From positions 32,420 to 96,419 of the forward strand of contig SCQS01000061.1 of NCBI GenBank assembly GCA_004299705.1: 64,000 nt of DNA. Direction: 5' to 3'. Position numbers and translations under genes: made by a program. Under the pieces are notes generated by a model. That model was not told the DNA's origin. It was given only the letters and a program-made list of their open reading frames with translations, and did not search any database. Below, piece by piece: positions 10,525-35,990 of the stretch (the stretch's first letter is position 1; each line of letters starts with the position of its first letter). The stretch is from Rhodanobacteraceae bacterium. GTDB taxonomy: Bacteria; Pseudomonadota; Gammaproteobacteria; Xanthomonadales; Rhodanobacteraceae.

Positions 10525-10620
10525 ACATCCCCCCGATGCTTCGCATCGACCCCCTTCCTGCGGAAGGGGGTACACGGCACTCCCCCTTCGGAACGAAGGG
10601 GGATCAAGGGGGATGGCTTC
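10525..10620. repeat. REP family B: CCCCCTTC-loop-GAAGGGGG hairpins
   Basis: Two hairpins, cccccttcctgcggaaggggg (10550-10570) and cccccttcggaacgaaggggg (10582-10602). They are flanked by catcccccc and agggggatggc. The family recurs at 13.5, 23.7 and 35.9 kb. Confidence 0.8.
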
Positions 10621-12641: not shown

Positions 12642-12774
12642 GGTGGGCAACAACGCGAAAGCTGCTGCGGCGCAGCATAGCGCGTATGCGGGTTGCGGCC
12701 AAGCACACTGGGTCGCATCGTTTGGCTGCGGGCCAGCCGAAGCGCCGACGGACGGCTTCGGCTGCGGGCTGTCA

Positions 12775-13395
12775 TCAGGCCGCCGGGCGGCGATCCCGCG
12801 GCAGGTGATGGACCAGGAATTCCATCTGGTCGGCAAGGATATTGCGGTTGGAGAGGATCAGGTGCTCGACCCAGCTCGGCTTGTAGGGAACGGCCAAGAG
12901 CGGCATCCCCGCCTGCTGCGGCGAGCGGCCGCCCTTCTTCAAGTTGCAGGCCAGGCACGCCGACACCACGTTTTCCCAGGTGTCCTGGCCGCCGCGCGAC
13001 AGCGGCATCACGTGGTCGCGGGTCAATTCGCCGCGCGTGCAATGGCGCCCGCAATACAGGCACAGGTAGCGGTCGCGCGCGAACAACGCCGCGTTGCTGA
13101 GCGCCGGCGAGGGATCGACCGCACCGCTCGCGCAATGCCCGCGGCTGGCGACGATCGGGTGCAGGCGCAGGATGCTCTGGTCGCCGGAATCCCGGTGCCA
13201 ACCACCGTGCAGCGTGAGACAGGGTTCACCCAGCGTCCACGCGACCGCTTCGCGCACGTACAGGCAGGCCGCGTCCTGCCAGCTGATCCAGTCGAGGATG
13301 CGCCCGCCCGCGTCGAGCGACAACACGCGCGTCGTGTGCAGATCCGCGACCGTGCACGCGGGATGTTCGATGGAACTGGCTGTGTGCGAGTCCAT
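12775..13395 (-). CDS. HNH endonuclease family protein
   Basis: ORF 12775..13416; start at MDSHT. The HNH core is CLYCGRHCTRGELTRDHVMPLSRGGQDTWENVVSACLACNLKKG, i.e. Cys4 zinc ligands with His/Asn/Asn. Confidence 0.8.
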   Translation of the reverse strand: MDSHTASSIEHPACTVADLHTTRVLSLDAGGRILDWISWQDAACLYVREAVAWTLGEPCLTLHGGWHRDSGDQSILRLHPIVASRGHCASGAVDPSPALSNAALFARDRYLCLYCGRHCTRGELTRDHVMPLSRGGQDTWENVVSACLACNLKKGGRSPQQAGMPLLAVPYKPSWVEHLILSNRNILADQMEFLVHHLPRDRRPAA

Positions 13396-13488
13396 GATTC
13401 GCGCAGCATAGAACAATTCCGTGAACGGGCGTTAGCGGCGTCTGTCCAATGGCCACCTGTCCTTGCGGGACGACAGCCCGTGTAGAGC

Positions 13489-13765
13489 CATCCCCCCGCC
13501 GCTGCGCGGCGACCCCCTTCCTGCGGAAGGGGGTGAGCGGGTGCCGGTATCCGTTTGTCTTCCCCCGCTTGCGAAGGAAAAGCAAGATGACTTCCCCTTC
13601 GTTTGCGAAGGAGCAGCAGGATGACCTCCCCCTTCGCCTGCGAAGGGGGAGCGCAGCGAACGCGCGCGCAGCGCGAGAGGGGGATGGCTTTTCGCACGTG
13701 GCGGTGCATCCCCCCGCACGCCTGCGGCATGCGACCCCCTTCGTGTCGAAGGAGGTGAATGAGCG
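13489..13765. repeat. Cluster of REP family B hairpins (about 5 units)
   Basis: Units include cccccttcctgcggaaggggg, ccccttcgtttgcgaagg, cccccttcgcctgcgaaggggg and cccccttcgtgtcgaaggagg. They are interspersed with catccccccgc and agagggggatggc motifs. Confidence 0.8.
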
Positions 13766-13787
13766 CAGCGCTGCATCCCGCTCACGC

Positions 13788-13901
13788 CGTCATTCCGGGG
13801 CCGCCCAAGGCGGAACCCGGAAGCTGCTTTTCATCTCATCCGACACCTTGAATTGAAACGGCAGATTCCGGGTTCTGTGCTGCGCACAGCCCCGAATGAC
13901 G
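13788..13901. repeat. REP family D pair (cgtcattccgg...ccggaa hairpins in inverted orientation)
   Basis: cgtcattccggggccgcccaaggcggaacccggaagc (13788-13824) and its inverted relative gattccgggttctgtgctgcgcacagccccgaatgacg (13864-13901). The pair lies just 3' of the SLOG-SLATT gene. Confidence 0.7.
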
Positions 13902-13912
13902 AAATGATGGAG

Positions 13913-15829
13913 TCACATCCTGCCCGCTTCCAGCGGCCGTTCGCGGTGCATCACCGCCCATTCCACGTGCTCGGCCAGCGCGGCTTCGCCGAGCGCGCGC
14001 AGGATGCCACGTTGTTCTTCCAGGTTGTCGGTGCGGTCGAGCGCCTTGCGCGCGTCGCCGAACACGCGGCCCATGAAACGGTATTGCCGGATCAGTTCGC
14101 GGTCGGCCTTGCGGAACGAATACGCCTCGCGCACCGCGGCGATGATCGAGAACACCGCCATGATCACGATCAGGTCGTTCTTGGCGTCGTAGGAAAGCTG
14201 GCGCAGGAATACCGCCATGAACACGCTGATCAGGATCGCCGCCAGCAGGCAGATCGCGCCGATCATCTCGTTGATGTGGTGGGTACGCTCGCGCTGTTCG
14301 GTGCGGTGCCGGTAATAACCCAGCTCGCCATGTTCCTCGTCGCCGACCCAGTCCTCGATCACCCCGCGCACCTGCTGCGCGTCCGGGCTCGACACATGGG
14401 CGCAGGCAGAAAGCCCGGCGCTGCGCATCACGTTGCGCACCCAGCCGAGTTCGATGTCCTGCTTCTGCATCAGGCTGTCGTGCGCGAACTCGGGATCGGT
14501 GGTCAGCGAGATGCCCGCGCGCCGCCAGTAACACTGCACGCGCAGACCCTCCGCCAGTGCGCGATAGTCGAGGTACTTGCGGTGCCAGGCGCGCCGTTTG
14601 GCGATGAAGCTGGTCACCACGCCGACCACGAACAGCAGCAGGAACACGTACAGCATGTTGTCCGAGCGTGGCAGGTTGTCGTACACCGTGAAGGCAATAC
14701 CCATCAGCGCAGCGGCGGTGTAGATGATGCGCAGCCCCAGCAGCACGCGCCTCTGGAAGTGCACGGCCAGCCAGTCGGCGGCGGCGAACAGGCCGGCGGC
14801 AGTGCCGCAGGCCTGCGCGCCGTGGCGCTCGTCGATCTCGGCGTGGAACGCGGCGATTTCCTCGCGGTACTTCGCGGCGTCAAGGTTGAATTCGTTGGCG
14901 TTTGCGAACACCCGTCGGAAAGCCGGTGGCATCGGCGCGTCCGGCTGGCCGGTTGCGTCAGGGGTGCGCCAGATCATTTGCCCCGCTTGCAGCGACGCCG
15001 CCGGCGCGCCATCCGGCGCTTCGCGCGCACAGACGAGGTGGCACAGCAGCCGTTCATCGCCGCCACCGGCCAGCCAGCGCGGCGCGCGGCGGCGGCGATC
15101 GAAAGCGCTGGGCAGGGCGCCGGTCAGGTAGTAATCCACGATTTGCGCGGTGCCCCCGAGCTTGCTGCTGTCCTTGCCGTCCCAGATCGCCAGCAGCACG
15201 TGGCAATGCCGTGCCACGAACATGCCGGCCTGCGCGTACTGGCGGTCGCGGTCGACGCCGTTGCGGTGGAGTCCGTCCGCACTGTGTCCGGGCAGCAGCG
15301 GCAGCTCGATCACCTGCGCCTGCGCGCACAGCGATTCGAATTGCCCTCGCGTGGCGGCATCTGCGAAGTCCCGCGCGTACAACGCGTGCGGCAGTGGCAG
15401 CGGAGCGATCAGCCGCGCACCCAGCTTCAGGCCTTCCTCCGCCACCAGCTGGTCGCCGCCCTCGGCCAGTGGCGACAGGATGGTCAGCGGGGAATTCGGG
15501 AACTCGCCCTGTAGTTGCATCAGCCACGCCCGCACGCGGGCGCGGATCGGCGCGATTTCGGCCGTTGCCAAATTGCGGTGGCTGGTGATGCCGATGACCA
15601 GCGGCGAGGCGACAGCGTGGATGGGTGAAGCCGCAACGCTCGCAGGTCCTGGTGCGTCATCCGCAGGCGTGGATTGAAGTTCGCCCGCCGCACCGGGTAC
15701 GTCGCCCACGGACGGCGCTCGACCCTCTCGCGTCATGCCGGGGCCAGCGCCGGCGTTGCCGGCGATGGAACCCGGAATCTGGAAATTTTGTTCGTTGTTT
15801 TGCATGAAAACTGGAAACACTTGTTGCAC
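13913..15829 (-). CDS. SLOG-like (DprA/LOG-superfamily Rossmannoid) domain fused to two 2-TM SLATT-like modules; candidate nucleotide-gated membrane effector
   Basis: ORF 13913..15829 with a GTG start; alternative ATG at 15805. Low-complexity N-terminus. Motifs VIGITSHRN, ILSPLAEGGDQLVAEEG, LIAPLPLP, HCHVLLAIWDG and GGTAQIVDYY resemble the SLOG/DprA-LOG pattern. Two TM pairs follow: LRIIYTAAALMGIAFTV/MLYVFLLLFVVGVVTSFI and IGAICLLAAILISVFMAVFL/LIVIMAVFSIIAAV. Each pair is followed by an amphipathic helix, as in SLATT/DUF4231. The CDS itself is high confidence; the domain call needs HMM or structure confirmation. Confidence 0.6.
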   Translation of the reverse strand: MQQVFPVFMQNNEQNFQIPGSIAGNAGAGPGMTREGRAPSVGDVPGAAGELQSTPADDAPGPASVAASPIHAVASPLVIGITSHRNLATAEIAPIRARVRAWLMQLQGEFPNSPLTILSPLAEGGDQLVAEEGLKLGARLIAPLPLPHALYARDFADAATRGQFESLCAQAQVIELPLLPGHSADGLHRNGVDRDRQYAQAGMFVARHCHVLLAIWDGKDSSKLGGTAQIVDYYLTGALPSAFDRRRRAPRWLAGGGDERLLCHLVCAREAPDGAPAASLQAGQMIWRTPDATGQPDAPMPPAFRRVFANANEFNLDAAKYREEIAAFHAEIDERHGAQACGTAAGLFAAADWLAVHFQRRVLLGLRIIYTAAALMGIAFTVYDNLPRSDNMLYVFLLLFVVGVVTSFIAKRRAWHRKYLDYRALAEGLRVQCYWRRAGISLTTDPEFAHDSLMQKQDIELGWVRNVMRSAGLSACAHVSSPDAQQVRGVIEDWVGDEEHGELGYYRHRTEQRERTHHINEMIGAICLLAAILISVFMAVFLRQLSYDAKNDLIVIMAVFSIIAAVREAYSFRKADRELIRQYRFMGRVFGDARKALDRTDNLEEQRGILRALGEAALAEHVEWAVMHRERPLEAGRM

Positions 15830-15867
15830 CTTCTGGAGGGCCGTGGCGATTGGCTTGCTTCTCGCTT

Positions 15868-15920
15868 CGTCATTCCAGGGCGGCCTGCAGCCTCATCGCA
15901 GGCCGAACCCGGAATCCAGC
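15868..15920. repeat. REP family D hairpin between the small secreted gene A3 and the SLOG-SLATT gene
   Basis: cgtcattccagggcggcctgcagcctcatcgcaggccgaacccggaatccagc, with inverted arms cattcc.ggg / cccggaatc. Confidence 0.7.
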
Positions 15921-15978
15921 TTTTGCTAACTGAGTCGGGGAGGCGCGAAAGCGCGCCTCCCCAAAGTGCAGCGTTCAA

Positions 15979-16216
15979 TCAACAGTTGTCGATCGTTGGG
16001 TTGGTAGTGACGTCGGGCGTCACCGAACCCGCTCCACCTGCTGCGGCCATGCAAGCGTTCTGGTTGCCGAACGCACATTCCACATCTTGCACCACGTACT
16101 GGAACCATGAGCCTGAGGAAGCAGTCGGTGCGGCATTGGCCACACTGGCGCTACCGGCGAGAAGCAACCCGATCAGCACGGCCACGGTGCGGGGGGGGGG
16201 TAAGTTTGCGTTTCAT
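15979..16216 (-). CDS. Small secreted Cys-containing protein (module A, A3); frame broken by a C10 tract in the signal-peptide codons
   Basis: ATG at 16216 has the SD AGAAGGAGAG and encodes MKRKLTPP..., then hits the homopolymer at 16191-16200. The downstream frame (ORF 15979..16185) reads VAVLIGLLLAGSASVANA|APTASS... and ends TNPTIDNC. Removing 1 nt (or adding 2) restores a continuous ~78-aa precursor. The leader and SD are near-identical to those of the paralog at 19965. Confidence 0.5.
16191..16200. repeat. G10 (C10 on the coding strand) homopolymer tract inside A3
   Basis: Printed as gggggggggg at 16191-16200. It places the ATG at 16216 out of frame (31 nt) with the signal-peptide ORF starting at 16185. 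Confidence 0.85.
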
Positions 16217-16236
16217 GATGCTCTCCTTCTGTGTTT

Positions 16237-16252
16237 GCGGCAGGATTGCCGC
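16237..16252 (-). promoter_or_regulatory. Conserved leader hairpin upstream of A3 (paralog at 19987-20002)
   Basis: Minus-strand GCGGCAatccTGCCGC lies about 9 nt upstream of the SD AGAAGGAGAG. About 45 nt of leader is conserved with module B. Confidence 0.45.
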
Positions 16253-16317
16253 GGTGAAACGGCGTCAGAAATACGCGAATTCTCGAAGTCGCAAGTCGTG
16301 TACACGCGATCGAAGAG

Positions 16318-16662
16318 TCATTTGTTATCGACTGTCGGATCACCCGGATTCCCTCCGACTCCGGATCCCGTGCAACAAGTCTGGCTCGGATTCCCATAGG
16401 ACACGCAAAGCGTGTAGGGATAGACGATTACAGGTCCGTTGTTCTGGTTGTTGTCGGTAACGGTGATCTCGCCGTCTGTTACGGTCGGGGTGCCGAAGAT
16501 CGATGTCGGCAGTTCGGTGAGTGAAGCGAACGTGAAATCCTGATTTTCGGCCGGTAGCCAGTTGATGGGGGCCGTGCCCCGATCCATTTGAAGATGCGGA
16601 GGATCGCAGGTGACCACCGGTGGGTTCACGCTGGTATCAAGGGAAACATGGACGTCTGGCAT
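16318..16662 (-). CDS. Small cytoplasmic beta-rich protein (module A, A2), C-terminal DP-x-V-x-NK motif
   Basis: ORF 16318..16800; start placed at MPDVHVSLD (ATG 16662), 114 aa, no signal peptide. Ends GDPTVDNK. Features ITVTDNNQNNGPVIVYPYTLCV. Lies 59 nt downstream of TIR-A. Confidence 0.65.
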   Translation of the reverse strand: MPDVHVSLDTSVNPPVVTCDPPHLQMDRGTAPINWLPAENQDFTFASLTELPTSIFGTPTVTDGEITVTDNNQNNGPVIVYPYTLCVSYGNPSQTCCTGSGVGGNPGDPTVDNK

Positions 16663-16720
16663 GGGAATGATCCTTTTTGATGCGCGGCACTCGGAAGGCG
16701 GGCCGCATCGCCTCGCTGCT

Positions 16721-19009
16721 TCAGTGTGCCTCGCCTGCGTGTCGCGGCGCGTTTGACGGGCGGCGTCCTTCGGCAATATCGGACTGCATGATTTGCGCAA
16801 GCCGTTGCTGGAATGCCGCGTTGGCTGGATAGCCGATGTGATGGCTGGCCAGCAGCGCCACGAAGTCCGGCGTGCGAAAACCCATGGCGTTGAGTTTGGC
16901 GATTGCCGGCTGCGCGGCTTGCGTTTGACCCAGGCTTAGCAGTGCTTCTGCATAGGCCGCGAGGAAGTTCGGGTCGTCACCCGCGCGCAACGTGGGTTGC
17001 AGCAGATTGCGCGCCTGTGCCCACTCGCGCTGTGCGGCGGCACTGTCGCGGCGTCGTGCGGCGATCGTCCCCAGCAGGATGTCGGCTTGCGCTCCGAGCA
17101 GGATCAGGCCGCGATCGTCCGGCATCTTCGTGCGCAATTTGGCAACAATGGCCGCCGCGGCTGCGGCTGCCTTGTCCGCGCCTTCGATGTCGGTGCGCGC
17201 CAGTTGCAAGCGTGCAGCTTCCAGCTGCGCCTGCGCCAAATCCGGTGGCCAATCAGTACTGGTTGGATCTTTCGCACTCAGCTCGCTCAACACCCGCACG
17301 GCATCAGCGTCGGCCGTCGCCGCGTCGCCGAGCCGCCCTGCTTGCCGCTGCAGCCCCCCCAACTGTTGGCTGTAGAGGCCGTAGTAGTCCTGCCAGCCGG
17401 AGTCAGTCGGGTCGAAAACCGTCAGTGCCTTGGCGCTGTCCACCGCTGCGGTGGTGAAGCGCAGTGCGTTGTCCAGATCGCCGCACCATCCCAGCGTGCG
17501 GCCCAGGATCGCGTCACTGATCAGCAGATAGGTTTGTGCATGATGATCGCTTGGACTGCCGGCAGCCAGCGACGCCTTGATGCGCTGGTCGGCGCGATAG
17601 TCCGTAATTGCCAGATCGAGCCGGCCTTGTTCCAGCGCCAGTTTTCCCAGGCTGTCGTATTGGTTGCCCAGGTACAACTGCCAACGCGCTTGCTTGGGTT
17701 GACGAGCGCGCCAACGCGTGTAGATGTTCAACGCGGCTTCGTACTGGATTCCGGCGTCGTCGAAATCTCCACGGTGGTCCAGCACGTAACCGCTGTCGTG
17801 ATACGCCGCAGCGAGTTCGAATGCGAGTTCGCTGTCATCGGGCTTCGCCGTTGCGGCTTTCTGCAGGGCGGCAGTGGCGGCCCGGAAGTCTTGCAGTGCG
17901 CGCGGCATGTCGCCCTGATACAAATGAGCCTGGCCGACCCATTTGAGGCTGTTGCCGTAGGCGGCTTGGCGAGACGAATTATCGGGCGCGCGCCTGACGA
18001 GTTCGGCGGCCAGTTTGGAGGCGTCTTGATACGCCCGCAGCGCCGCTTGTGTCTTGCCCTGATCCATGCGCACGCTGCCGATTTTTTCAAGTGCGGTGAC
18101 GCGCATCTCAAGTGATGCGTCCGTTGCGTCGGCGACGGGCAACGATTCGAAGTATGCAAGCGCCTTGTCGTCCACGGCCTGCATGATGTCCAAGCGATCT
18201 ACTTGCGCCAGTTTGTCGTTGAGGTCGCCGAGCATGAAGTTGACCAACCCCTCGGCCTGCTTCTGCCGGCGCTCGGCGGCCTGCTTGGCGGTCACGGCTT
18301 CGTGTTGCGCGATCACGGCGCGATGACGGGAAACCAAGGCCGCGATGGCCAGTACGATGGTCACGGCCATCACCACGACCGCGATCGCGGTGACGGCCGC
18401 CATCCGGCGCATCTGCCGGCGCTGCTCGCGCTGCTTCAGCGCATCGAAGCCGACGTCGAGCATCCCGGCGATCAGTTTCAGTTTCGCGTTGGGTTTGCCG
18501 TCCTTGCCGGGGCGTGCGTCGGCAGCGATCGGTTCGGCGCGTTTGGCGATGGGCCGGCCCTCGGCATCCGTGGCGAAGCGCAGCGCAGGGCAGAAGCATT
18601 CTTCCGCTTCGCGACCGGAGATGTCGGAAGCACTCGGTTCGCCATCCACGATCAGGCAGAAAATTCGATCGCCGCGGCCCATCCGCTTGTACGCCAGCAC
18701 TTCCTCGTTGACCCAGCGCGACGCTGCCGAGGCGGGCGAGCAGATCACGATCAGGTTTTCGGACTGCGAGAGCGCCTGGTTGATCCTGGCGCCGAGCTCG
18801 GGCGCGCTGGAAAGCTCGTCGCGGTCGCGGAAGACCGGGTTCAGGCGGCGCGGGATCGCGCCGTGCGCGGTCTGCTTGCCGACCAGCCGCGACGGCACGC
18901 GATACGTCTCCAACGCCTTGTGCAGCCAGCCCGCCCACGCCTTGTCGCGGTGGCTGTAGCTCAAGAAGGCGCGATAGATGGGCGTCTGCTGGGTGATGGG
19001 GTCCGGCAT
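16721..19009 (-). CDS. TIR domain - single TM - TPR-like repeat protein (TIR-A)
   Basis: N-terminal TIR motifs YRAFLSYSHRDKAWAGWLHKALE, RDRDEL, LIVICSPASAASRWVNEEV (conserved Glu) and IFCLIVDGEP. TM helix MAAVTAIAVVVMAVTIVLAIAALV (about aa 203-226). About 530 aa of Ala/Leu/Gln-rich TPR-like helical repeats follow. Confidence 0.9.
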   Translation of the reverse strand: MPDPITQQTPIYRAFLSYSHRDKAWAGWLHKALETYRVPSRLVGKQTAHGAIPRRLNPVFRDRDELSSAPELGARINQALSQSENLIVICSPASAASRWVNEEVLAYKRMGRGDRIFCLIVDGEPSASDISGREAEECFCPALRFATDAEGRPIAKRAEPIAADARPGKDGKPNAKLKLIAGMLDVGFDALKQREQRRQMRRMAAVTAIAVVVMAVTIVLAIAALVSRHRAVIAQHEAVTAKQAAERRQKQAEGLVNFMLGDLNDKLAQVDRLDIMQAVDDKALAYFESLPVADATDASLEMRVTALEKIGSVRMDQGKTQAALRAYQDASKLAAELVRRAPDNSSRQAAYGNSLKWVGQAHLYQGDMPRALQDFRAATAALQKAATAKPDDSELAFELAAAYHDSGYVLDHRGDFDDAGIQYEAALNIYTRWRARQPKQARWQLYLGNQYDSLGKLALEQGRLDLAITDYRADQRIKASLAAGSPSDHHAQTYLLISDAILGRTLGWCGDLDNALRFTTAAVDSAKALTVFDPTDSGWQDYYGLYSQQLGGLQRQAGRLGDAATADADAVRVLSELSAKDPTSTDWPPDLAQAQLEAARLQLARTDIEGADKAAAAAAAIVAKLRTKMPDDRGLILLGAQADILLGTIAARRRDSAAAQREWAQARNLLQPTLRAGDDPNFLAAYAEALLSLGQTQAAQPAIAKLNAMGFRTPDFVALLASHHIGYPANAAFQQRLAQIMQSDIAEGRRPSNAPRHAGEAH

Positions 19010-19101
19010 GGGTCTGACTCTTTGCTCGTGCTTTCCGGCGCCTGCCGGGAATGCGTCGTTGCGCTTGGGCGTTGGCCGAGGAAACTCTGATTAACCTGCT
19101 A

Positions 19102-19137
19102 CGTCGTCATTTCCGCGAAAGTGGAAATCCAGTGACG
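19102..19137. repeat. REP family D hairpin in the spacer between modules A and B
   Basis: cgtcgtcatttccgcgaaagtggaaatccagtgacg. Confidence 0.65.
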
Positions 19138-19266
19138 TTGCGCAACGTACTGAAGAAGGCACTGGATTGACTCGCGCCATCCTTGGCGCTCTCCCCCGAT
19201 CAGAAGCGCCTCGGGGCAGGCTCTGCGGACAGCCTGCGGCGTCTCGCGTTGGCAATCCTGCCAATG

Positions 19267-19308
19267 CATTCGGGGCACCGCGATGGAGCTGCCGTGGCCC
19301 CGAATGAC
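19267..19308. repeat. REP family D-like hairpin in the inter-module spacer
   Basis: cattcggggcaccgcgatggagctgccgtggccccgaatgac. A further hairpin, ccgggttacc...ggtaacccgg, lies at about 19345-19388. Confidence 0.65.
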
Positions 19309-19464
19309 CAATTGCTTCCACGTCATCAGAGCGGCTGGATAAATTCCGGGTTACCGTGCGACGTCATGGAGTGGTAACCCGGATTACAGCTTTGTTTCGA
19401 TGGACGGGAGGCCGGTTTCGGGCTTCCGTTTCCGATGCATCGTGACATCAGATCATCAGCTGAG

Positions 19465-19965
19465 TTATTTGTTGATGATCATTGGGTCAATGATGGCCAG
19501 TGTTCCATCCGAACGCTGGATCGTGAGGGTGAATTCGAATTCATCCGGAGTGGGGTCGGCGTCGAACACGGACAATCGCGTAGTGTTAGCGCGAGCAACG
19601 AGCGTTCGCATCGGAAATGCAGTGCTCCCGATTGAATCGCTGGTACCGCCCGATACCTCCTTGAAGCTGATGCCGACCGGGCTGTATGTGGTTCCATCAG
19701 CCCCCTGGATGATGAAACGAATCTCGGTAGGCCCGTTCACGGTCAGAGCGCCGCTCGAATCCATGGACACCATGCTGCCCCCGTTATACAGCTGGTACGA
19801 TGCGGGCGATGACAATGACAGCGGCAGGGCTTGCACGACGGTGACAACGACGGTCGGTACGTTTACCGAGGCTGATGCGGATTGGGCGTAAGCCAATCTA
19901 ACCCCCCCCAAGCCGATACCAGCCAACGCTAATGCGATTGCCGCGGATGACAGAATACGTTTCAT
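19465..19965 (-). CDS. Secreted beta-rich protein (module B, B3), C-terminal DPMIINK motif
   Basis: ORF 19465..20037. Start placed at MKRILSSAAIALALAGIGLGGVRLAYA|QSAS (signal peptide) with SD AGAAGGAGAG; 166 aa. Ends IIDPMIINK. GC is lower than in the flanking sequence. Confidence 0.75.
   Translation of the reverse strand: MKRILSSAAIALALAGIGLGGVRLAYAQSASASVNVPTVVVTVVQALPLSLSSPASYQLYNGGSMVSMDSSGALTVNGPTEIRFIIQGADGTTYSPVGISFKEVSGGTSDSIGSTAFPMRTLVARANTTRLSVFDADPTPDEFEFTLTIQRSDGTLAIIDPMIINK
19902..19909. repeat. C8 (G8 on the coding strand) homopolymer inside the B3 signal-peptide codons
   Basis: acccccccca at 19901-19910. It encodes the GLGG part of the signal peptide and is currently in frame. 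Confidence 0.8.
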
Positions 19966-19986
19966 GATGCTCTCCTTCTGCGTGTG

Positions 19987-20002
19987 CGGCGGAATTGCCG
20001 CA
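19987..20002 (-). promoter_or_regulatory. Conserved leader hairpin upstream of B3 (paralog of 16237-16252)
   Basis: Minus-strand GCGGCaattccGCCGC, followed by cacacgcAGAAGGAGAGcatcATG, which is identical in register to the A3 leader. Confidence 0.45.
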
Positions 20003-20301
20003 GTTAAACAACAGGGGTCAACATGATTTTCCAGCATGGGTGCCCCAACCGGATCGGATAGTTCCTACGGTTTCGCCGCGACCCGGTGGTGGATTTGTCT
20101 CACAGGGATTGCCCTTGACGGTGGCGTGCAACAGCTAGAACCCGGTGATTTTTTCGCAACGCTTGATGTGCCAAGGCGTTGGCAAACGCGCCGCATCCTG
20201 CGGCTTCCCGTCAAGCCATCGGCTGCGCCGATGTTCGTTTCGACATCCTCCCTGCACGGTTCGGATCGCGATTCCGGGATGATGGGTTGAGTCGATGTTT
20301 C

Positions 20302-20712
20302 CTAGACCGGCTTGTTCTGGATCATCGGGTCGCAGGGGATGGTCACGTTCTCGGTGGTGTCGAGCACCGTCACCTTGTAGCGCGCATCGATGGCCGCGTC
20401 GCAGCGGTCGTTGATCGCGCGCGTCCGCGGCGCGTTGCCTTGCGCCGTCAATTGATTGGCGTTGTCGTTGACGAAGCTGATTTCGGCGAACCGGTATCGC
20501 GCATCGGTGTTCGCGGCGAACATCAGCGTGGTCGCCGCGTGGCCGCCGCCGATGCCATACACGATCGAACCGTTGTTGGTGGGTTGATTGCCGCCGCTGT
20601 ACTTGTAACTGTAGGTCTGGCCGTTGGACGCCATAACGTTGGTCCAGCCGTCGCCATTGCTGGGAAAGTTGCGGATGTCCAGGGATACGTTGGTCGGGTT
20701 GTTGGCGGGCAT
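20302..20712 (-). CDS. Small cytoplasmic beta-rich protein (module B, B2), C-terminal CDPMIQNKPV motif
   Basis: ORF 20302..21039; start placed at MPANNPTNV (ATG 20712) with SD GGAG 8 nt upstream; 136 aa, no signal peptide. Lies 103 nt downstream of TIR-B. Confidence 0.7.
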   Translation of the reverse strand: MPANNPTNVSLDIRNFPSNGDGWTNVMASNGQTYSYKYSGGNQPTNNGSIVYGIGGGHAATTLMFAANTDARYRFAEISFVNDNANQLTAQGNAPRTRAINDRCDAAIDARYKVTVLDTTENVTIPCDPMIQNKPV

Positions 20713-20815
20713 CGTCTTTACTCCGGTTGCAGGACTGGCCGTTGGGGGCCGGGGTGGCGGTCGCGCGTTGCATCGGTGCGATGCAGGCGCGACCGATGGG
20801 TGCTGGCGTAGTGGA

Positions 20816-22957
20816 TCATTGCGAGGTAACCGTGGCTTGCGCGATCGGCGTTTGCTTCCATGGGTACAGCGGCACATAGCCGCTGTGGTCGAGCTTTGCC
20901 AGATACGGCGCGGCGTCGGCGTCACGGTGCTGTGCCAGCAGCACGCGCACCAGCAAGGGGAGGCGGTCGAACGCCGGCGGATCGCTGCCTTCGCGCAGGA
21001 TGTGTTCGGCCTCGGCCCACGCCGCGCGCGCGGCTGCAACGTCGCCGCGCTGCGCGGCGACGTTGCCTTGCAGCCAGTGCAATTCCGCCGGCAGCAAGCC
21101 GTAGCCGTCGTTGCCTTGTTGGCTCGTCGCAGCCGCTTTCAGCCCGGCATCGGCCTGCGACAGCCAGGCGGACGCTCCGTCGAGGTCACTGCGCCGCCAG
21201 GCCAACTCACCCAGCAGCACCCGGGCTTTCGCCAGCCAATGCTGGGCCAGGCCGTCGTTGGGCTCGGCGGCGTGCACCGCAGAAGCGGCGCGTTCTGCCT
21301 TGCGCGCCGCTGCTTGCGCTTGCGCAGGTGACACGAGTGAGTCCAGCCGCGCCTGCCACCAGTAGTCCATGCCGAGTTGCAGCTGCCACGCCTTGTTGGT
21401 AGGGTCTTGGCGGGTCAGCGTTTCCGAAAGCGCAGCCGCTTCCGCCGCGCCACTGCGCGCGTCGGCGACTCCGCCGGTCTCGGCCTGCACCTGTACGAGG
21501 AACAGCCGTGCATCCGGCCACTGCGCTTGCCATTGCGCATTGGCGGGCTCTGCGGCGCGGTTGGCCGAGATGTAGTCGACCTGTTCGGTGAAGCGGGAGC
21601 GCGCCTCGGCGAGACGGCCATCCTTCATGGCCAGGCTGCCGAGGTAGGAAGCCACGGTCGCGGCCTCGTCGCGCAAGTCGGCGACGTGCGGATGCGTCTT
21701 GATCCAGCCGAGGTACAGCGCGTACGCAGACTGGAAGATCGTTTCGGCCTGCTGGTCGCGGTTGCGGGCGAGGTCGAGCGTGCCGAGGTTCACGTCGCCG
21801 TAAGCGACCTCGCGTTGCCACGCGAAGTTGCTTCGATCCATCGCCGCCAGCCGCAGCGCGCTGTCGCGATAGCGGGTCAGCCAGGCTTTGGCGTCGTCGA
21901 GGCGACCCTGGCGCCAGAACACGAAGCCAATCCAGTATTCGGCCTGGGCCAGGTCGAACAGCCGTTGGCCGTTGCCGGGCTGGCGCTGGTGCAGCTCGTT
22001 GCTGCGCGCATAGGCGTCGCGGAACGCCTGCATGGCCTTGTCGGCGTGGCCCTGGTCCAGCCGCACCTGACCGATGCCGGTCAACAGGCGCGCTTGCTCT
22101 TCCAGCGCGTGTTCGCTCAGGTCGCGGGGCTGCAGGGTGTCGAAATACGTGGTGGCCTTGTCGTCCACCGCGACCATCAGGTCGAGCCGTCCGACCGTGG
22201 ACAGTTTCTTGCGCAGGTCGCCCAGCATGAAGCCCAGGATGTCCTCGGCCTGGGCCTGGCGGCGCTGGGCATCGTTGCGTGCGACGTAGGCGCTGACCGC
22301 AAGCACGCTGGTGATCGCCATGCCAACCAGCGCTGCCGTCGTGATGGCCAGCAGCCGGTGGCGGTGGCGACGCGCTTCTCGGCGCGCCAAGGCATCGAAG
22401 CCGACATCCAGCATCCCGGCGATCAGTTTCAGCTTGGCGTTTTGCTTGCCGTCCTTGCCGGGACGCACGTCGGCGGCGATCGGTTCGGTGCGTTCGCCCG
22501 TCGGTTGGCCGTTCGCATCGAGTTGGAATCTCAACGCGGGGCAGAAACATTCTTCCGCTTCGCGGCCGGGCATGTCGGTGGCGTCGGGCTCGCCGTCCAC
22601 GATCAGGCAGAATATGCGTCCGGCGCGGCCCATACGCTTGTATGCCAGCACTTCCTCGTTGACCCAGCGCGAGGTGGTCGACGCAGGCGAGCAGACCACG
22701 ATCAGGTTTTCGGATCGCGCCAGCGCCTCGTTGACCCTGCGGCCAAGGTCGGTCGCGCTGGCGAGTTCCTCGCGGTCGCGGAAGATCGGGTTGAGGCGGC
22801 GCGGGATTTCACCGTGCGCGGTGCGGGTGCCGACCAGCCGCGACGGCACGCGATACGTTTCCAGTGCCCGATGCAACCAGTCCGCCCACGCCTTGTCGCG
22901 GTGGCTGTAGCTGATGAAGGCGCGGTAGGTGAAGCTGGCAACGGACGGATCGGGCAT
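20816..22957 (-). CDS. TIR domain - single TM - TPR-like repeat protein (TIR-B), paralog of TIR-A
   Basis: ORF 20816..23077; start placed at MPDPSVASFTYRAFISYSHRDKAWADWLHRALE (coordinate +/-1 by my count). The TIR, juxtamembrane region and LKLIAGMLDVGFDAL are nearly identical to TIR-A. TM helix LLAITTAALVGMAITSVLAVSAYV. The TPR-like C-terminal region is divergent. Confidence 0.9.
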   Translation of the reverse strand: MPDPSVASFTYRAFISYSHRDKAWADWLHRALETYRVPSRLVGTRTAHGEIPRRLNPIFRDREELASATDLGRRVNEALARSENLIVVCSPASTTSRWVNEEVLAYKRMGRAGRIFCLIVDGEPDATDMPGREAEECFCPALRFQLDANGQPTGERTEPIAADVRPGKDGKQNAKLKLIAGMLDVGFDALARREARRHRHRLLAITTAALVGMAITSVLAVSAYVARNDAQRRQAQAEDILGFMLGDLRKKLSTVGRLDLMVAVDDKATTYFDTLQPRDLSEHALEEQARLLTGIGQVRLDQGHADKAMQAFRDAYARSNELHQRQPGNGQRLFDLAQAEYWIGFVFWRQGRLDDAKAWLTRYRDSALRLAAMDRSNFAWQREVAYGDVNLGTLDLARNRDQQAETIFQSAYALYLGWIKTHPHVADLRDEAATVASYLGSLAMKDGRLAEARSRFTEQVDYISANRAAEPANAQWQAQWPDARLFLVQVQAETGGVADARSGAAEAAALSETLTRQDPTNKAWQLQLGMDYWWQARLDSLVSPAQAQAAARKAERAASAVHAAEPNDGLAQHWLAKARVLLGELAWRRSDLDGASAWLSQADAGLKAAATSQQGNDGYGLLPAELHWLQGNVAAQRGDVAAARAAWAEAEHILREGSDPPAFDRLPLLVRVLLAQHRDADAAPYLAKLDHSGYVPLYPWKQTPIAQATVTSQ

Positions 22958-22961
22958 CGCG

Positions 22962-22971
22962 GCCCCCCCCC
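22962..22971. repeat. C9-10 (G-run on the coding strand) homopolymer 5 nt upstream of the TIR-B start codon
   Basis: The minus strand reads ...ACGC-G(9-10)-CCGCG-ATG. The G-run occupies the SD position. Confidence 0.75.
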
Positions 22972-23117
22972 GCGTCGGTACGACAACCATCCCTGGCAGG
23001 ACACGACCCTTGGGCGCGACGCGCCTGCCGGTCGCCGCGATCCGGCGATCCCGGATGCTGGGTGCCGAACCTAACACAAAACGTGAACTGTGTCTCGTTT
23101 CTTGATGGGTCGCCCTG

Positions 23118-23612
23118 TCAGGTCAGGGGTTTGGCCATCCGGATCATGTCGGGCGAGAAACCCGAGTGTTCGTACAGCGCGCGCGCCCGCGCGTTGCCGG
23201 GGAGCACGTTGAGCGTCAGCCATTTGCAACGATGAGCTTTTGCCCACCTGTGCGCGTTCGCCAGCAGGGCGCCACCGATGCCTTGGCCGTCGTGGCTGCG
23301 CACCACTGCGATATTCGAAATGTGGCAGGCGCGTTGGCCGGACACGAAATCGCGTTCCGCCCTGAGGTGCAGGAAACCGCAAAGGTGGCCGGCTGCATCT
23401 TCGGCAATGAAGAACCGTTCAGCGGGCCGCGGTTCGCGCAAGGCGCGCTGGATTTCCGAACGGATGGCTGAGGTGACCCCGCGCTTGCTGCGGCCTTTCG
23501 GAAGCTTGAATGATGCAAAGCGCGGCACCAGCGACAGGATGAAATCCGCGTCGGCGGGGGTGGCGGGGCGGATCGCAATCTTGCAACGATGCTGTTTGTG
23601 CTCGCGCGACAT
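23118..23612 (-). CDS. GNAT family N-acetyltransferase
   Basis: ORF 23118..23780; start at MSREHKQH. Acetyl-CoA binding motif VVRSHDGQGIGGALL and C-terminal NARARALYEHSGF. Confidence 0.85.
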   Translation of the reverse strand: MSREHKQHRCKIAIRPATPADADFILSLVPRFASFKLPKGRSKRGVTSAIRSEIQRALREPRPAERFFIAEDAAGHLCGFLHLRAERDFVSGQRACHISNIAVVRSHDGQGIGGALLANAHRWAKAHRCKWLTLNVLPGNARARALYEHSGFSPDMIRMAKPLT

Positions 23613-23656
23613 GGTGTTTGCAGTGAGCCCTTCTGGTTCACTTCGCTGGAAACGTC

Positions 23657-23765
23657 TTCCCCCTTCCGCAGGAAGGGGGATCGAGGGGGATGGCCTTTGG
23701 CGTGCCTTGGCACATCCCCCCGTGTGCCTCAGCACGCGACCCCCTTCGTGCCGAAGGGGGTGATC
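23657..23765. repeat. REP family B element
   Basis: cccccttccgcaggaaggggg, atcgagggggatggc, cacatccccccg and cccccttcgtgccgaaggggg. It abuts the stop codon of the acyl-CoA dehydrogenase gene. Confidence 0.8.
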
Positions 23766-25557
23766 ACCCAAACAACGCATCCGGCATCGCCAGCACGCTG
23801 TCGGCGCCGGCCTTCATCGCGGCCAGGTGGGTGCGGGTGCGCGGCAGGATGCGGTCGTAATAGAAGCGCGCGGTCAGGCGCTTGGCCTGCCTGAAATCGT
23901 CCGGGTGCGGTGATGCTTCCGCGGCCGCCACGCTGCGCGCCCACGCCCAGGCCAGCGCGACGTAACCGGAATACATCAGGTAATCGTAGGCCGCGGCGCC
24001 GATTTCGTCGGCGTTCGAGACGGCGCGTTTGCCGAGATGCTGCGTGACCTCGGTCCATTCCTTTGCCAGCGCTGACAGTTTCGGAATGAAGTCCTGCAGC
24101 GCTTCGTCATGGGCATGTTGCGTGCAGAACGCGCCGAGGTGTTCGAGGAACAACTGCAGCCCCTCGCCGCGTTGCTGCATGATCTTGCGGCCCAGAAGGT
24201 CCAGCGCCTGGATGCCGGTGGTGCCTTCGTAGATCGTGGTGATGCGCGCATCGCGCGCGTACTGCTCCATGCCTTGCTCGGCGATGTAGCCGTGGCCGCC
24301 GTAGATCTGCAGCGCCAGGCTGGTGCACTCGTTGGCGTTCTCGGTCAAGAGCGCCTTGACGATGGGCGTGAGGAACGACACCAGCACGTCGGCGCGTTTG
24401 GCTTCTTGTGCGTCGCTCGAACGATGCTGGATGTCGACCAGCGTCGCGGCGTACAGGCCCAGCGCGCGGCCGCCTTCGATCAGCGCTTTCTGCGTCAGCA
24501 GCATGCGCCGGATGTCGCCGTGCACGATCAGCGGATCGGCCGGTTTGTCGGGAAACTTCGGACCCGACAGCGCGCGCATCTGCAGGCGTTCGCGTGAGTA
24601 GCTCAAGGCGTTTTGGTAGGCGCGTTCGGACAGCGCCAAACCCTGCAAGCCGACCGCGAGCCGCGCGGTGTTCATCATGGTGAACATCGCGTTGAGGCCC
24701 TTGTTGGGCTCACCGATCAGCCAGCCTTGCGCGCCGTCGAAATTCATCACGCAGGTGGCGGAACCCTTCAAGCCCATCTTGTGCTCGATCGCGCCACAGC
24801 GCAGTGCATTGCGTTCGCCCGGCTTGCCGTCCTTGCCGACCTTGAACTTCGGCACGATGAAAAGCGAAATGCCCTTCACGCCCTTGGGCGCATCCGGCAA
24901 GCGTGCCAATACCAGGTGCACGATGTTGTCGGTGAAATCGTGCTCGCCCGCGGTGATGAAGATCTTGGTGCCGCTGATCGCGTGGCTGCCGTCGGGGTTC
25001 GGTTCGGCGCGGGTTTTCAGAAGACCAAGGTCGGAACCGCAGTGCGGCTCGGTCAGGCACATGGTGCCGGTCCACGCGCCCGAGACGACCGGTTTGAGGA
25101 AGGCCTCTTTCTGCCAGTCCGCGCCGTGCACGCGCAGCGCTTCGGTCGCACCGTGCGAGAGCAGCGGATAGGTACCCCACGCGAGGTTGGCCGAGTCGAT
25201 CATTTCCTTGACCGGCGCGCCGACGGTTTCCGGCAGGCCCTGTCCGCCGAAGGCTTCCGGCGCGGTCAAGCCGGCCCAGCCGGCTTCGACGTATTGTGCG
25301 TAGGCTTGTTTGAAACCCTTGGGCGTTGCCACCGAGCCGGTGTTCTTGTCGAACGAGCAACCCAATTGGTCACCGATTTCGTTCAAGGGTGCCAGCACGG
25401 TTTGCGCGAACTTCGCGGCCTCGTCCATCACCGCGTCGATCAGTTCGCGGTTGAGTGCATCGCAACCGGGAAGTGTGGCGAACAGCTTTTCGACATCCAG
25501 CAGGTCGTACAGGCAGAAACGGATGTCGGCGAGCGGGGCGGTGTAGTGCGTGGTCAT
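23764..25557 (-). CDS. Long-form acyl-CoA dehydrogenase (FadE-like, with extra C-terminal domain)
   Basis: ORF 23764..25686; start at MTTHYTAPLADIRF (ATG 25557). ACAD motifs MCLTEPHCGSDLG, SGTKIFITAGEHD and IYGGHGYIAEQGMEQYARDARITTIYEGTTGIQ. Confidence 0.9.
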   Translation of the reverse strand: MTTHYTAPLADIRFCLYDLLDVEKLFATLPGCDALNRELIDAVMDEAAKFAQTVLAPLNEIGDQLGCSFDKNTGSVATPKGFKQAYAQYVEAGWAGLTAPEAFGGQGLPETVGAPVKEMIDSANLAWGTYPLLSHGATEALRVHGADWQKEAFLKPVVSGAWTGTMCLTEPHCGSDLGLLKTRAEPNPDGSHAISGTKIFITAGEHDFTDNIVHLVLARLPDAPKGVKGISLFIVPKFKVGKDGKPGERNALRCGAIEHKMGLKGSATCVMNFDGAQGWLIGEPNKGLNAMFTMMNTARLAVGLQGLALSERAYQNALSYSRERLQMRALSGPKFPDKPADPLIVHGDIRRMLLTQKALIEGGRALGLYAATLVDIQHRSSDAQEAKRADVLVSFLTPIVKALLTENANECTSLALQIYGGHGYIAEQGMEQYARDARITTIYEGTTGIQALDLLGRKIMQQRGEGLQLFLEHLGAFCTQHAHDEALQDFIPKLSALAKEWTEVTQHLGKRAVSNADEIGAAAYDYLMYSGYVALAWAWARSVAAAEASPHPDDFRQAKRLTARFYYDRILPRTRTHLAAMKAGADSVLAMPDALFG

Positions 25558-32412: not shown

Positions 32413-32420
32413 AATAGTCA

Positions 32421-35894: not shown

Positions 35895-35990
35895 GCCATC
35901 CCCCTCACTCCCCCTTCCTTTGGAAGGGGGAAGAATGCCTTGCCCCCTTCCAAAGGAAAGGGGGTCGCGCCGCAGGCGCGGGGGGATGTC
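35895..35990. repeat. REP family B element
   Basis: gccatccccct, cccccttcctttggaaggggg, cccccttccaaaggaaaggggg and ggggggatg. Confidence 0.8.

Follow-up and report, generated by a model that had tools for sequence, protein, structure and literature searches.

A cluster of seven genes in the genome of a Rhodanobacteraceae bacterium (assembly GCA_004299705.1, contig SCQS01000061.1) probably encodes a Thoeris-type signalling defence system which monitors the cell envelope instead of the cytoplasm. The cluster is located on the minus strand at positions 13913-22957 of the analyzed stretch of 64,000 nucleotides (contig positions 32,420 to 96,419), which is called the window in the following. It comprises genes for two large TIR proteins with a transmembrane (TM) helix and a TPR domain (TIR-A and TIR-B), four small partner proteins (A2, A3, B2 and B3) and a membrane protein in which a predicted SLOG domain is followed by two predicted SLATT hairpins, referred to as the effector (Table 1). 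Judging from the predicted domains, we consider it likely that these genes form a three-component Thoeris-like TIR cassette, here with two sensor modules feeding one effector; a specifically antiviral role is proposed with less confidence. The Thoeris-like reading had been put forward in an initial annotation of the window. It is supported by the TIR, SLOG and SLATT assignments and by the conserved adjacency of the genes, the function itself being read from the sequence.

Domain architecture of the TIR proteins and the effector

Both large proteins match the Pfam families TIR_2 (TIR-A, E = 2.3e-12; TIR-B, E = 1.3e-13) and ThsB_TIR (E = 3.9e-8 and E = 2.2e-8, respectively), in all cases above the gathering cut-offs. 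We aligned 90 TIR domains of the TIR-TM-TPR subfamily, 89 of which have a residue at the column of E103 of TIR-A (SRWVNEEV, motif SxW(C/V)xxE), and this residue is Glu in all 89 sequences. From established knowledge of TIR NADases, we take it to be the catalytic residue. The residues Y18, H20, F60, D62, R63, C90, S91, S97 and W99 are conserved as fully as E103, and P160, A162, A163, D164 and R166, which belong to an EP(I/L)AADxR motif further downstream, occur in 90 of 90 domains. The set of TIR motifs with a conserved Glu, noted earlier for both large proteins, was thereby confirmed.

Matches to TPR families are scattered over both proteins, with TPR_11 above its cut-off in TIR-A, and TPR_12 reaches E = 2.6e-68 among homologues of the TIR-TM-TPR proteins. 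According to sequence prediction, TIR-A and TIR-B have no N-terminal signal peptide. Each contains a single strongly hydrophobic helix, at residues 208-226 in TIR-A and 203-221 in TIR-B. The 15 residues before this helix contain 5 (TIR-A) and 6 (TIR-B) Lys or Arg residues, compared to 2 and 3 after it. Because of this excess of basic residues on the TIR side, the positive-inside rule would place the TIR domain in the cytoplasm and the TPR domain of ~500 residues in the periplasm. The two proteins share 43.5% identity over their full length and are therefore old paralogues. The plan of a TIR domain of ~185 amino acids (aa), one TM helix and ~500 further aa is kept in full-length distant partners, the main exceptions being TIR genes which are truncated by contig ends. 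In five related loci (L104, L120, L135, L152 and L162), recurring cysteines were observed in the last ~50 residues of the TPR domain (C..D/Q... followed by C.....C). This cysteine cluster is absent from TIR-A and TIR-B; it would fit an oxidising, periplasmic location.

The effector is encoded by an open reading frame (ORF) of 638 codons, for which the coordinates of the longest ORF were used (13913-15829), and it is 100% identical to EPN36_12715. Its start codon is uncertain because the conserved part begins only around residue 75 (GxTSHRN...). Candidate starts are located at 15805, 15736 and 15622, the last of which is used in the NCBI annotation. We modelled residues 70-345 with AlphaFold2 from an alignment of 43 homologues (predicted local distance difference test score, pLDDT, 86.1; predicted TM-score, pTM, 0.84) and compared the model to the PDB with Foldseek. 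All 14 matches at E ≤ 0.001 are members of the SLOG superfamily (YpsA, DprA from four species and ShosA). The top match is YpsA 2nx2 (E = 5.8e-7, target-normalised TM-score 0.63), followed by 3uqz, 8zva, 4ljk and 3maj. Among the weaker matches are a Moco carrier protein, TM1055, the SLOG domain of ThsA bound to 3'-cyclic ADP-ribose (3'cADPR; 7uxs, E = 9e-3) and LOG. The model thus supports a SLOG fold for the N-terminal domain, nearest to the YpsA/DprA clade, as expected from the Rossmannoid, SLOG-like domain that had been described from the sequence. The motifs GxTxHR, LAxGGDQ and WDGK...GGTAQ are invariant. The last two, to which the initial annotation had drawn attention, are retained in relatives with 25-35% identity in the forms LAEGADR and WDG...GGTA. 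A phmmer search of the effector against the PDB sequences gave no match.

Four TM helices were identified in the effector by hydropathy. They form two hairpins with short outer loops and with basic residues on the cytoplasmic side. SLATT_3 (20.5 bits, cut-off 26.3) and DUF4231 (21.7 bits, cut-off 24.7) match residues 346-434 below threshold, as does SLATT_1 at residues 502-574 (28.2 bits, cut-off 41). Precomputed annotations with PF14015, PF18184 or PF18181 are common among the homologues, and one relative, P0167, clears the DUF4231 cut-off when rescanned. It is therefore probable that the effector contains SLATT modules, and the two modules of two TM helices each proposed in the initial annotation are supported by the helices, the sub-threshold matches and the annotation of homologues. 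As a whole, the reading of the effector as a SLOG domain with two SLATT modules is supported by structure and by transitive homology, and the profile and structure searches run on 13913-15829 did not contradict it. The family is large. It gave 2903 matches in a collection clustered at 90% identity and 6907 among cluster representatives at 50% identity (994 at E < 1e-30), most of which have a length of ~560-620 aa. Relatives are absent from 50,697 phage records, and two only were found on plasmids.

Conservation of the cassette and its small partner genes

For analysis of the gene neighbourhood, the effector was searched in one genome per GTDB species. Relatives were found in 514 species, the best 80 of which all belong to Rhodanobacter, Dyella, Rudaea, Luteibacter, Dokdonella or unnamed Rhodanobacteraceae/Lysobacterales (53-81% identity). 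Counts for these close relatives refer to 61 loci with at least 3.5 kb of upstream flank. A full-length TIR-TM-TPR gene is located directly upstream of the effector gene and on the same strand in 43 of the 61 loci, with gaps of up to 1.3 kb, and 9 of the 43 have two such genes. In three further loci of the 61, the TIR-TM-TPR gene is divergent from the effector gene. The gene ends overlap or abut in locus L004. The number of TIR genes varies, from two in the window to between 0 and about seven in related loci.

Distant loci were collected by a metagenome scan seeded with effector relatives of 22-34% identity, which yielded 80 loci. A TIR gene of the same subfamily stands beside the effector gene in 25 of them (E = 1e-53 to 1e-93 with a hidden Markov model, HMM, of the subfamily). 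In a further 8 the TM-TPR part is truncated by the contig end, which gives a total of at least 33 of 80, and in a further 4 the same TM-TPR module is found behind a different N-terminus. With at least 2.6 kb on both sides (25 distant loci), 10 have the TIR gene and 2 the alternative version. The TIR gene lies upstream, downstream or divergent in the distant loci. The trio of TIR-TM-TPR protein, small protein with a DPxIxN tail and effector recurs around relatives with 30-36% identity. The linkage of TIR gene and effector gene is real and old. Co-localisation in other genomes, on which the initial annotation had made its reading depend, was thus found in close as well as in distant loci.

The contexts of the cassette are unrelated to each other. 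Recurrent ones are acyl-CoA dehydrogenase/GNAT ... HNH/CLC, as in the window, apaG/apaH ... S9 peptidase and two others, and many are unique. Within sub-clades, synteny is stable. An IS110-family transposase gene is located directly upstream of the cassette in L001 (2485-3453), and BrnT/BrnA and PIN toxin-antitoxin genes are located 1.4-2.6 kb upstream of it in L004 (4896-6121). These neighbours are consistent with an accessory or mobile region. A second TIR_2 family (~598 aa, faint TPR matches, 27 members) often occurs in tandem beside the cassette, downstream of the effector gene and on the opposite strand (L001 11937-15532, L006, L007, L014 with five copies, L020, L029 and others). The window lacks this family and has only the REP-filled gap at 13449-13856 in the corresponding place.

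Variants of the sensor were also observed. In L113 (1432-5112), the TM and TPR module is fused at full length to an nSTAND1 NTPase in place of the TIR domain (E = 3.3e-94), and partial genes of the nSTAND1 type stand beside distant SLOG-SLATT genes in L089, L131 and L155. These fusions point to an exchangeable sensor head mounted on a shared module of membrane and periplasmic parts. The mobilizable plasmid pSBC2-4 (377 kb) of the betaproteobacterium Caballeronia sp. SBC2 carries a DUF4231-annotated relative of the effector, after which come genes for an annotated TIR protein and for a large protein with WD40 repeats (L166 6046-12510); this is another sensor variant. A secreted protein with a weak C-type-lectin match was found in L131 (874-2502), in L155 and in two other loci.

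All four small proteins of the window end in the motif [DN]PxIxN. In most related loci, the gene between TIR and effector has the same C-terminal motif, and tails like DPRIKNGG or DPRVENxG are found in the distant loci, where the small partners mostly have a signal peptide and several cysteines. The commonest partner type in Rhodanobacteraceae is A2-like, with 43 members in 40 loci (BLAST cluster), located between TIR and effector; this family has no signal peptide. B3 is identical to the NCBI protein EPN36_12730 and has an N-terminal hydrophobic segment. It matches Pfam DP-EP (PF08985) with E = 0.0047 and 17.7 bits, below the gathering cut-off of 25, and homologues of the B2 and B3 type match the same profile with 12.4-16 bits, always at its C-terminal end. 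B2 itself has no Pfam match. For A2, no DP-EP match was found, Pfam scans of 22 family members returned noise only, and a family profile gave nothing below E = 0.48 against the PDB sequences. An AlphaFold2 model of A2 from 15 aligned sequences was unusable (pLDDT 46.7). In a word-indexed search, A2 had only 14 homologues and B3 only 6, and no Pfam annotation is attached to any of them.

With hhalign, A2 is related to the family c56 (96% probability). The same method gives no significant link of A2 to B2 or B3 beyond the C-terminal motif, and a single family for all four proteins is therefore not claimed. The small partners seem to be uncharacterised beta-rich proteins with a common C-terminal tail, not one proven family. 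Because their position is conserved, they can be regarded as an integral third component. Co-sensor, tethered ligand and effector inhibitor are candidate roles. Secretion, which had been proposed for the small partners, holds for B3, which has a signal peptide; A3 is frameshifted and would be secreted only if repaired, and A2 and B2 have no signal peptide.

Six of the seven co-directional ORFs listed in the initial annotation are intact at their coordinates and translate cleanly, the exception being A3, whose span of 238 nt is not a multiple of three. The ATG of A3 at 16216 is preceded by a good AGGAG, and a tract of ten C comes after it. The frame of this ATG stops within ~22 codons past the tract, and an ORF of 68 codons (15979-16185) lies one base out of register. 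With C9 instead of C10, A3 would begin with MKRKLTPPRTVAVLIGLLLAGSASVANA and then AP..., a standard signal peptide. In five independent genomes, genes of small secreted partners open with ATGAAACGYAAACT and a run of C6 to C10, in every case out of frame. Programmed ribosomal frameshifting was rejected as a general explanation, since the five poly-C genes require shifts in different directions.

The window contains only three G/C runs of at least 8 nt, the C10 tract of A3, a G8 tract in B3 and a G9 tract upstream of TIR-B. Mononucleotide shuffles of the 64-kb window contain about 11 such runs; the genome therefore avoids them except at the cassette. Across related loci, the cassette shows a roughly 9-fold enrichment of runs of at least 8 nt (5 in 207 kb versus 2 in 763 kb; p = 0.006), and the two runs counted as outside lie ~200 nt upstream of a TIR gene. 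The pattern fits slipped-strand phase variation, although a homopolymer assembly error is possible in any single case. The tracts, located at the 5' ends of A3, B3 and TIR-B, probably make expression of the sensor side phase-variable.

Comparison with known systems and alternative explanations

In Thoeris systems, the SLOG domain of ThsA binds 3'cADPR, the combination of TIR and SLATT is known as type VII with canonical cADPR as signal, and a 'SLOG and 4TM' effector is listed among 29 putative Thoeris configurations (Yirmiya et al., 2025, bioRxiv 10.64898/2025.12.03.692087). The statement of the initial annotation that the architecture is not a named system therefore holds in part. PADLOC has no model for it, but TIR with SLATT is named as type VII and the 'SLOG and 4TM' effector had already been listed.

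By domain content, the 'SLOG and 4TM' configuration is like the window in that a TIR gene adjoins an effector with SLOG and four TM helices, as at 13913-15829 (compared by description and gene identifiers). It differs in its TIR domains, as its two TIR-domain sequences do not match the HMM of the window-type TIR subfamily even at E ≤ 10. In the accessible part of Table S1 of Yirmiya et al. (2025), the motifs FRDRDEL, FRDREEL, SYSHRD and WVNEE of the window-type subfamily are present in no '4TM SLOG' row, and the single match to WVNEE is a type VIII entry. The accessible part of the same article describes neither a TM-TPR extension nor a small third gene for 'SLOG and 4TM'. Type VII Thoeris (ThsB TIR and ThsH SLATT) pairs a TIR signal generator with a SLATT effector which is thought to oligomerise and breach the membrane, and resembles the window as far as the probable SLATT modules of the window effector are concerned. 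It is described as a two-gene operon, however, and ThsH is annotated with SLATT alone, whereas the effector of the window has a SLOG domain and then two probable SLATT hairpins, which sets it apart from the published ThsH. The TIR proteins listed for type VII are domain sequences of ~130-140 aa from another subfamily, one of which (Pseudohongiella) does not match the window-type subfamily HMM at E ≤ 10, in contrast to the TIR domain fused to TM and TPR found here.

Type I Thoeris (ThsB and the SIR2-SLOG protein ThsA, signal 3'cADPR) resembles the proposed cassette in a TIR-made nucleotide sensed by SLOG, and 7uxs was among the structural matches mentioned above. The window effector has no SIR2 domain according to Pfam, NCBIfam and PADLOC, its output would be a membrane module and not NAD+ depletion, and its SLOG domain is nearer to YpsA/DprA than to that of ThsA. 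In type III Thoeris (van den Berg et al., 2024, cited at second hand), several TIR paralogues serve one SLOG effector, as proposed for the window, and the signalling mode is uncharacterised. The two listed TIR domain sequences of this type, from P. aeruginosa, do not match the window-type HMM. Among proteins of the YpsA/DprA/ShosA clade, which gave the best structural matches, the GxTGHR-type, S/LAxGxD and GGT glycine-loop motifs are shared with the effector. These proteins have 14-18% sequence identity to it, and YpsA and DprA lack a fusion to four TM helices. According to later papers of the Aravind group, SLATT domains themselves had been predicted to be membrane or pore-forming effectors responding to nucleotide signals.

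For the sensor, the same module of TM and TPR is known from nSTAND1 NTPase-TM-TPR proteins of conflict systems (Kaur et al., 2020, PMC7159879). These have another N-terminal signalling domain, and the distant loci with such proteins mentioned above contain no TIR domain. As an analogy only, the predicted topology is also that of animal Toll-like receptors, in which solenoid repeats on the outer side are joined by one TM helix to a TIR domain in the cytoplasm. In the proteins described here, the order is reversed, with the TIR domain at the N-terminus, the repeats are TPR and not leucine-rich repeats, and the catalytic Glu is kept, so that the TIR domain is probably an enzyme rather than an adaptor scaffold. 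A common ancestry of the whole architecture is not implied by this likeness. Wang et al. (2024, PMC11350192) remarked that bacterial TIR systems seem to have neither the membrane anchor nor the extracellular repeats which characterise animal Toll-like receptors.

We propose the following mechanism for the cassette. The TIR domain would be located in the cytoplasm and the TPR domain in the periplasm, where a periplasmic or envelope cue such as phage adsorption, DNA injection or envelope damage would alter the oligomeric state of the TPR domain. The cue might be sensed via the small partners, which may bind to the groove of the TPR domain with their conserved C-terminal tail. The change in the TPR domains would gather the cytoplasmic TIR domains into active sites which cleave NAD+ and release a nucleotide derived from ADP-ribose, e.g., a cADPR isomer. 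Binding of this nucleotide by the SLOG domain would lead the SLATT hairpins to oligomerise or open, and depolarisation of the inner membrane would cause growth arrest or death before phage replication is completed. An extended form of this proposal, to which we attach only tentative belief, is a bacterial counterpart of Toll-like-receptor signalling, with envelope sensing by TPR, DPxIxN adaptors (secreted in many loci), TIR clustering, a SLOG-gated SLATT pore and tract switching of adaptors and sensors for hedging between sensitivity and self-toxicity.

Several observations weigh against the proposal. Two 'SLOG and 4TM' examples, one from Streptomyces sp. GKU 895 and one from Ca. Nitrospira nitrosa, failed to protect E. 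coli (bioRxiv 10.64898/2025.12.03.692087); these operons have TIR domains of unrelated subfamilies and were tested in a heterologous host. The failure may reflect a need for a small partner or for the native envelope context. With the PADLOC HMMs, the best match was ThsB1 at E = 0.039, ThsA was not matched, and the effector had no match at all. No Pfam match of the SLOG clan to the window effector was found at E < 0.1, and among the curated SLOG families only YAcAr gave a signal, which is weak (E = 0.002) and comes from one relative of ~30% identity. No TIR-TM-TPR gene was detected in 15 of the 61 close loci, several of which contain fragments, and a nearby TIR gene is likewise missing from roughly half of those distant loci that have long flanks. 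In about a fifth of the close relatives, the effector gene is kept without a nearby TIR gene in otherwise identical contexts, and some genomes lack the small genes as well. Examples are L002/L032 (R. ginsengisoli); L037 compared to L042, L044, L049 and L078; L025; and L033/L039 compared to L004/L034. We infer that the effector either persists after loss of its sensor or depends on a sensor encoded at another site of the genome. The effector is also unusually well conserved throughout a bacterial family (53-81% identity), which would be expected of a lineage-specific housekeeping function more than of a defence gene with fast turnover. Finally, A2 and B2 lack a signal peptide, so docking of their tails to the TPR domain does not apply if this domain is periplasmic.

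The best-surviving alternative keeps the same wiring from TIR via a nucleotide to a SLOG-gated SLATT channel, an ion-conducting membrane protein, and assigns it to lineage-specific envelope sensing or cell-cell signalling, e.g., of envelope stress, interbacterial attack or nutrient state. We regard this as rather unlikely. It agrees with the occurrence of the effector in genomes of 514 species, the best 80 of which all belong to Rhodanobacteraceae/Lysobacterales at 53-81% identity, with stable synteny within sub-clades, the missing PADLOC match and the ordinary metabolic genes in the flanks, and with the lack of protection by the 'SLOG and 4TM' operons in E. coli. The predicted periplasmic sensor domain and the secreted partners also point outward and not at cytoplasmic phage components. 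However, the number of TIR copies is variable, the contexts are unrelated and include IS110, BrnT/BrnA and PIN neighbours, and the small genes are lower in GC. Fusion of the TM-TPR module to an nSTAND1 NTPase, a hallmark of conflict systems, beside the same effector family likewise speaks for defence, and the characterised bacterial pairs of TIR with SLOG or with SLATT are all antiviral (Yirmiya et al., 2025).

According to another explanation, the TIR proteins are themselves NAD+-depleting effectors triggered by TPR, and the SLOG-SLATT protein is independent or co-regulated, or its SLOG domain acts enzymatically, for instance as a LOG-like N-glycosidase which degrades a signal. Precedents exist for both parts, as proteins with TIR and TPR protect E. 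coli with no further effector protein (Wang et al., 2024, PMC11350192) and some SLOG clades are enzymes (PMC9503650), and the SLOG-SLATT gene is often found without a neighbouring TIR gene. This explanation is nevertheless improbable given that adjacency is kept between very divergent sequences and in three different gene orders, with tightly packed or overlapping genes. The fold is nearest to the ligand-binding YpsA/DprA clade and not to LOG enzymes, and fusion of SLOG to a pore-type SLATT would make little sense without a ligand. That the genes are chance neighbours or share an island history, with SLOG and SLATT over-read from weak matches, is hardly credible in view of the conserved neighbourhood (43 of 61 close loci, no fewer than 33 of the 80 distant ones), the structural SLOG match down to E = 5.8e-7 and the SLATT-clan annotations common in homologues, even though the SLATT, DUF4231 and DP-EP matches of the window proteins are all below curated cut-offs and no promoter or terminator consensus marks a single operon.

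For the Thoeris-type cassette, the logic leading from TIR to a membrane effector (type VII) and the domain content 'SLOG and 4TM' are already known. The TIR-TM-TPR sensor topology, the conserved DPxIxN third component, the double-module arrangement and the G/C tracts clustered at the 5' ends of the sensor-side genes look new. For the published TIR signalling systems compared here, the reported trigger was phage infection within the cell. If the proposal is true, TIR signalling can report events outside the cytoplasm, and the family supplies both hallmarks of Toll-like receptors, membrane anchoring and an outward repeat domain, linked to a membrane effector gated by a second messenger. It would also add a conserved third component to Thoeris-type systems and offer a testable case of phase-variable control of an abortive-infection sensor.

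Composition and hairpins of the locus

Table 1. Features of the TIR and SLOG-SLATT cluster, in window coordinates unless a related locus is named.
Feature	Position	Strand	Description
TIR-B	20816-22957	-	713 aa; TIR domain ~22403-22927; TM helix 22295-22351; TPR domain 20819-22294
B2	20302-20712	-	136 aa; without signal peptide or TM helix; C-terminus ...CDPMIQNKPV
B3	19465-19965	-	166 aa; secreted; signal peptide MKRILSSAAIALALAGIGLGGVRLAYA; C-terminus ...IDPMIINK
TIR-A	16721-19009	-	762 aa; TIR domain ~18440-18976; TM helix 18332-18388; TPR domain 16724-18331
A2	16318-16662	-	114 aa; without signal peptide; C-terminus ...GDPTVDNK
A3	15979-16216	-	Frameshifted gene of a small secreted partner; C-terminus ...TNPTIDNC
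SLOG-SLATT effector	13913-15829	-	SLOG ~14840-15607 (predicted); SLATT hairpin 1 14528-14794 and hairpin 2 14108-14326 (probable)
C10 tract	16191-16200		In A3, just after the start codon
G8 tract	19902-19909		Inside the signal-peptide codons of B3, in frame
G9 tract (minus-strand reading)	22963-22971	-	6 nt upstream of the TIR-B start codon
Homopolymer sites in related loci	L001 6646; L015 6723; L028 7635; L036 147		
Perfect 11-bp hairpin	15937-15962	-	Between A3 and the effector gene
11-bp hairpin	19345-19383	-	In the 455-nt gap separating module B from module A
REP-like hairpins	10551-10601; 13514-13648; 23660-23759; 35911-35929		

The cluster is flanked by an ordinary metabolic set of genes (acyl-CoA dehydrogenase, GNAT, CLC channel and DXS). 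A lower GC content of the small genes, mentioned in the initial annotation, was confirmed with 0.58-0.59 versus 0.63-0.71 elsewhere, including the large genes. No Rfam match was found at positions 12000-25000 of the window. A search for sigma-70 consensus promoters gave none, and terminator-like sites are fewer than in shuffled sequences. Since it lacks a T-run, the perfect hairpin separating A3 from the effector gene does not qualify as a canonical terminator.

A REP-like hairpin, CCCCTTC(N5-6)GAAGGGG, occurs in 7 copies in the window, where 0 are expected by chance, and the copies are mostly paired and intergenic. REP hairpins had been described at each module border, and the pairs do flank the outer region: those at 13514-13648, on the 3' side of the cluster, and at 23660-23759, beyond the GNAT gene, are both outside the cluster. 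The internal borders carry different hairpins, and REP hairpins were therefore rejected as module borders. Spurious ORFs running over the REP-like hairpins give peptides of the 'PLPAEGG' type.

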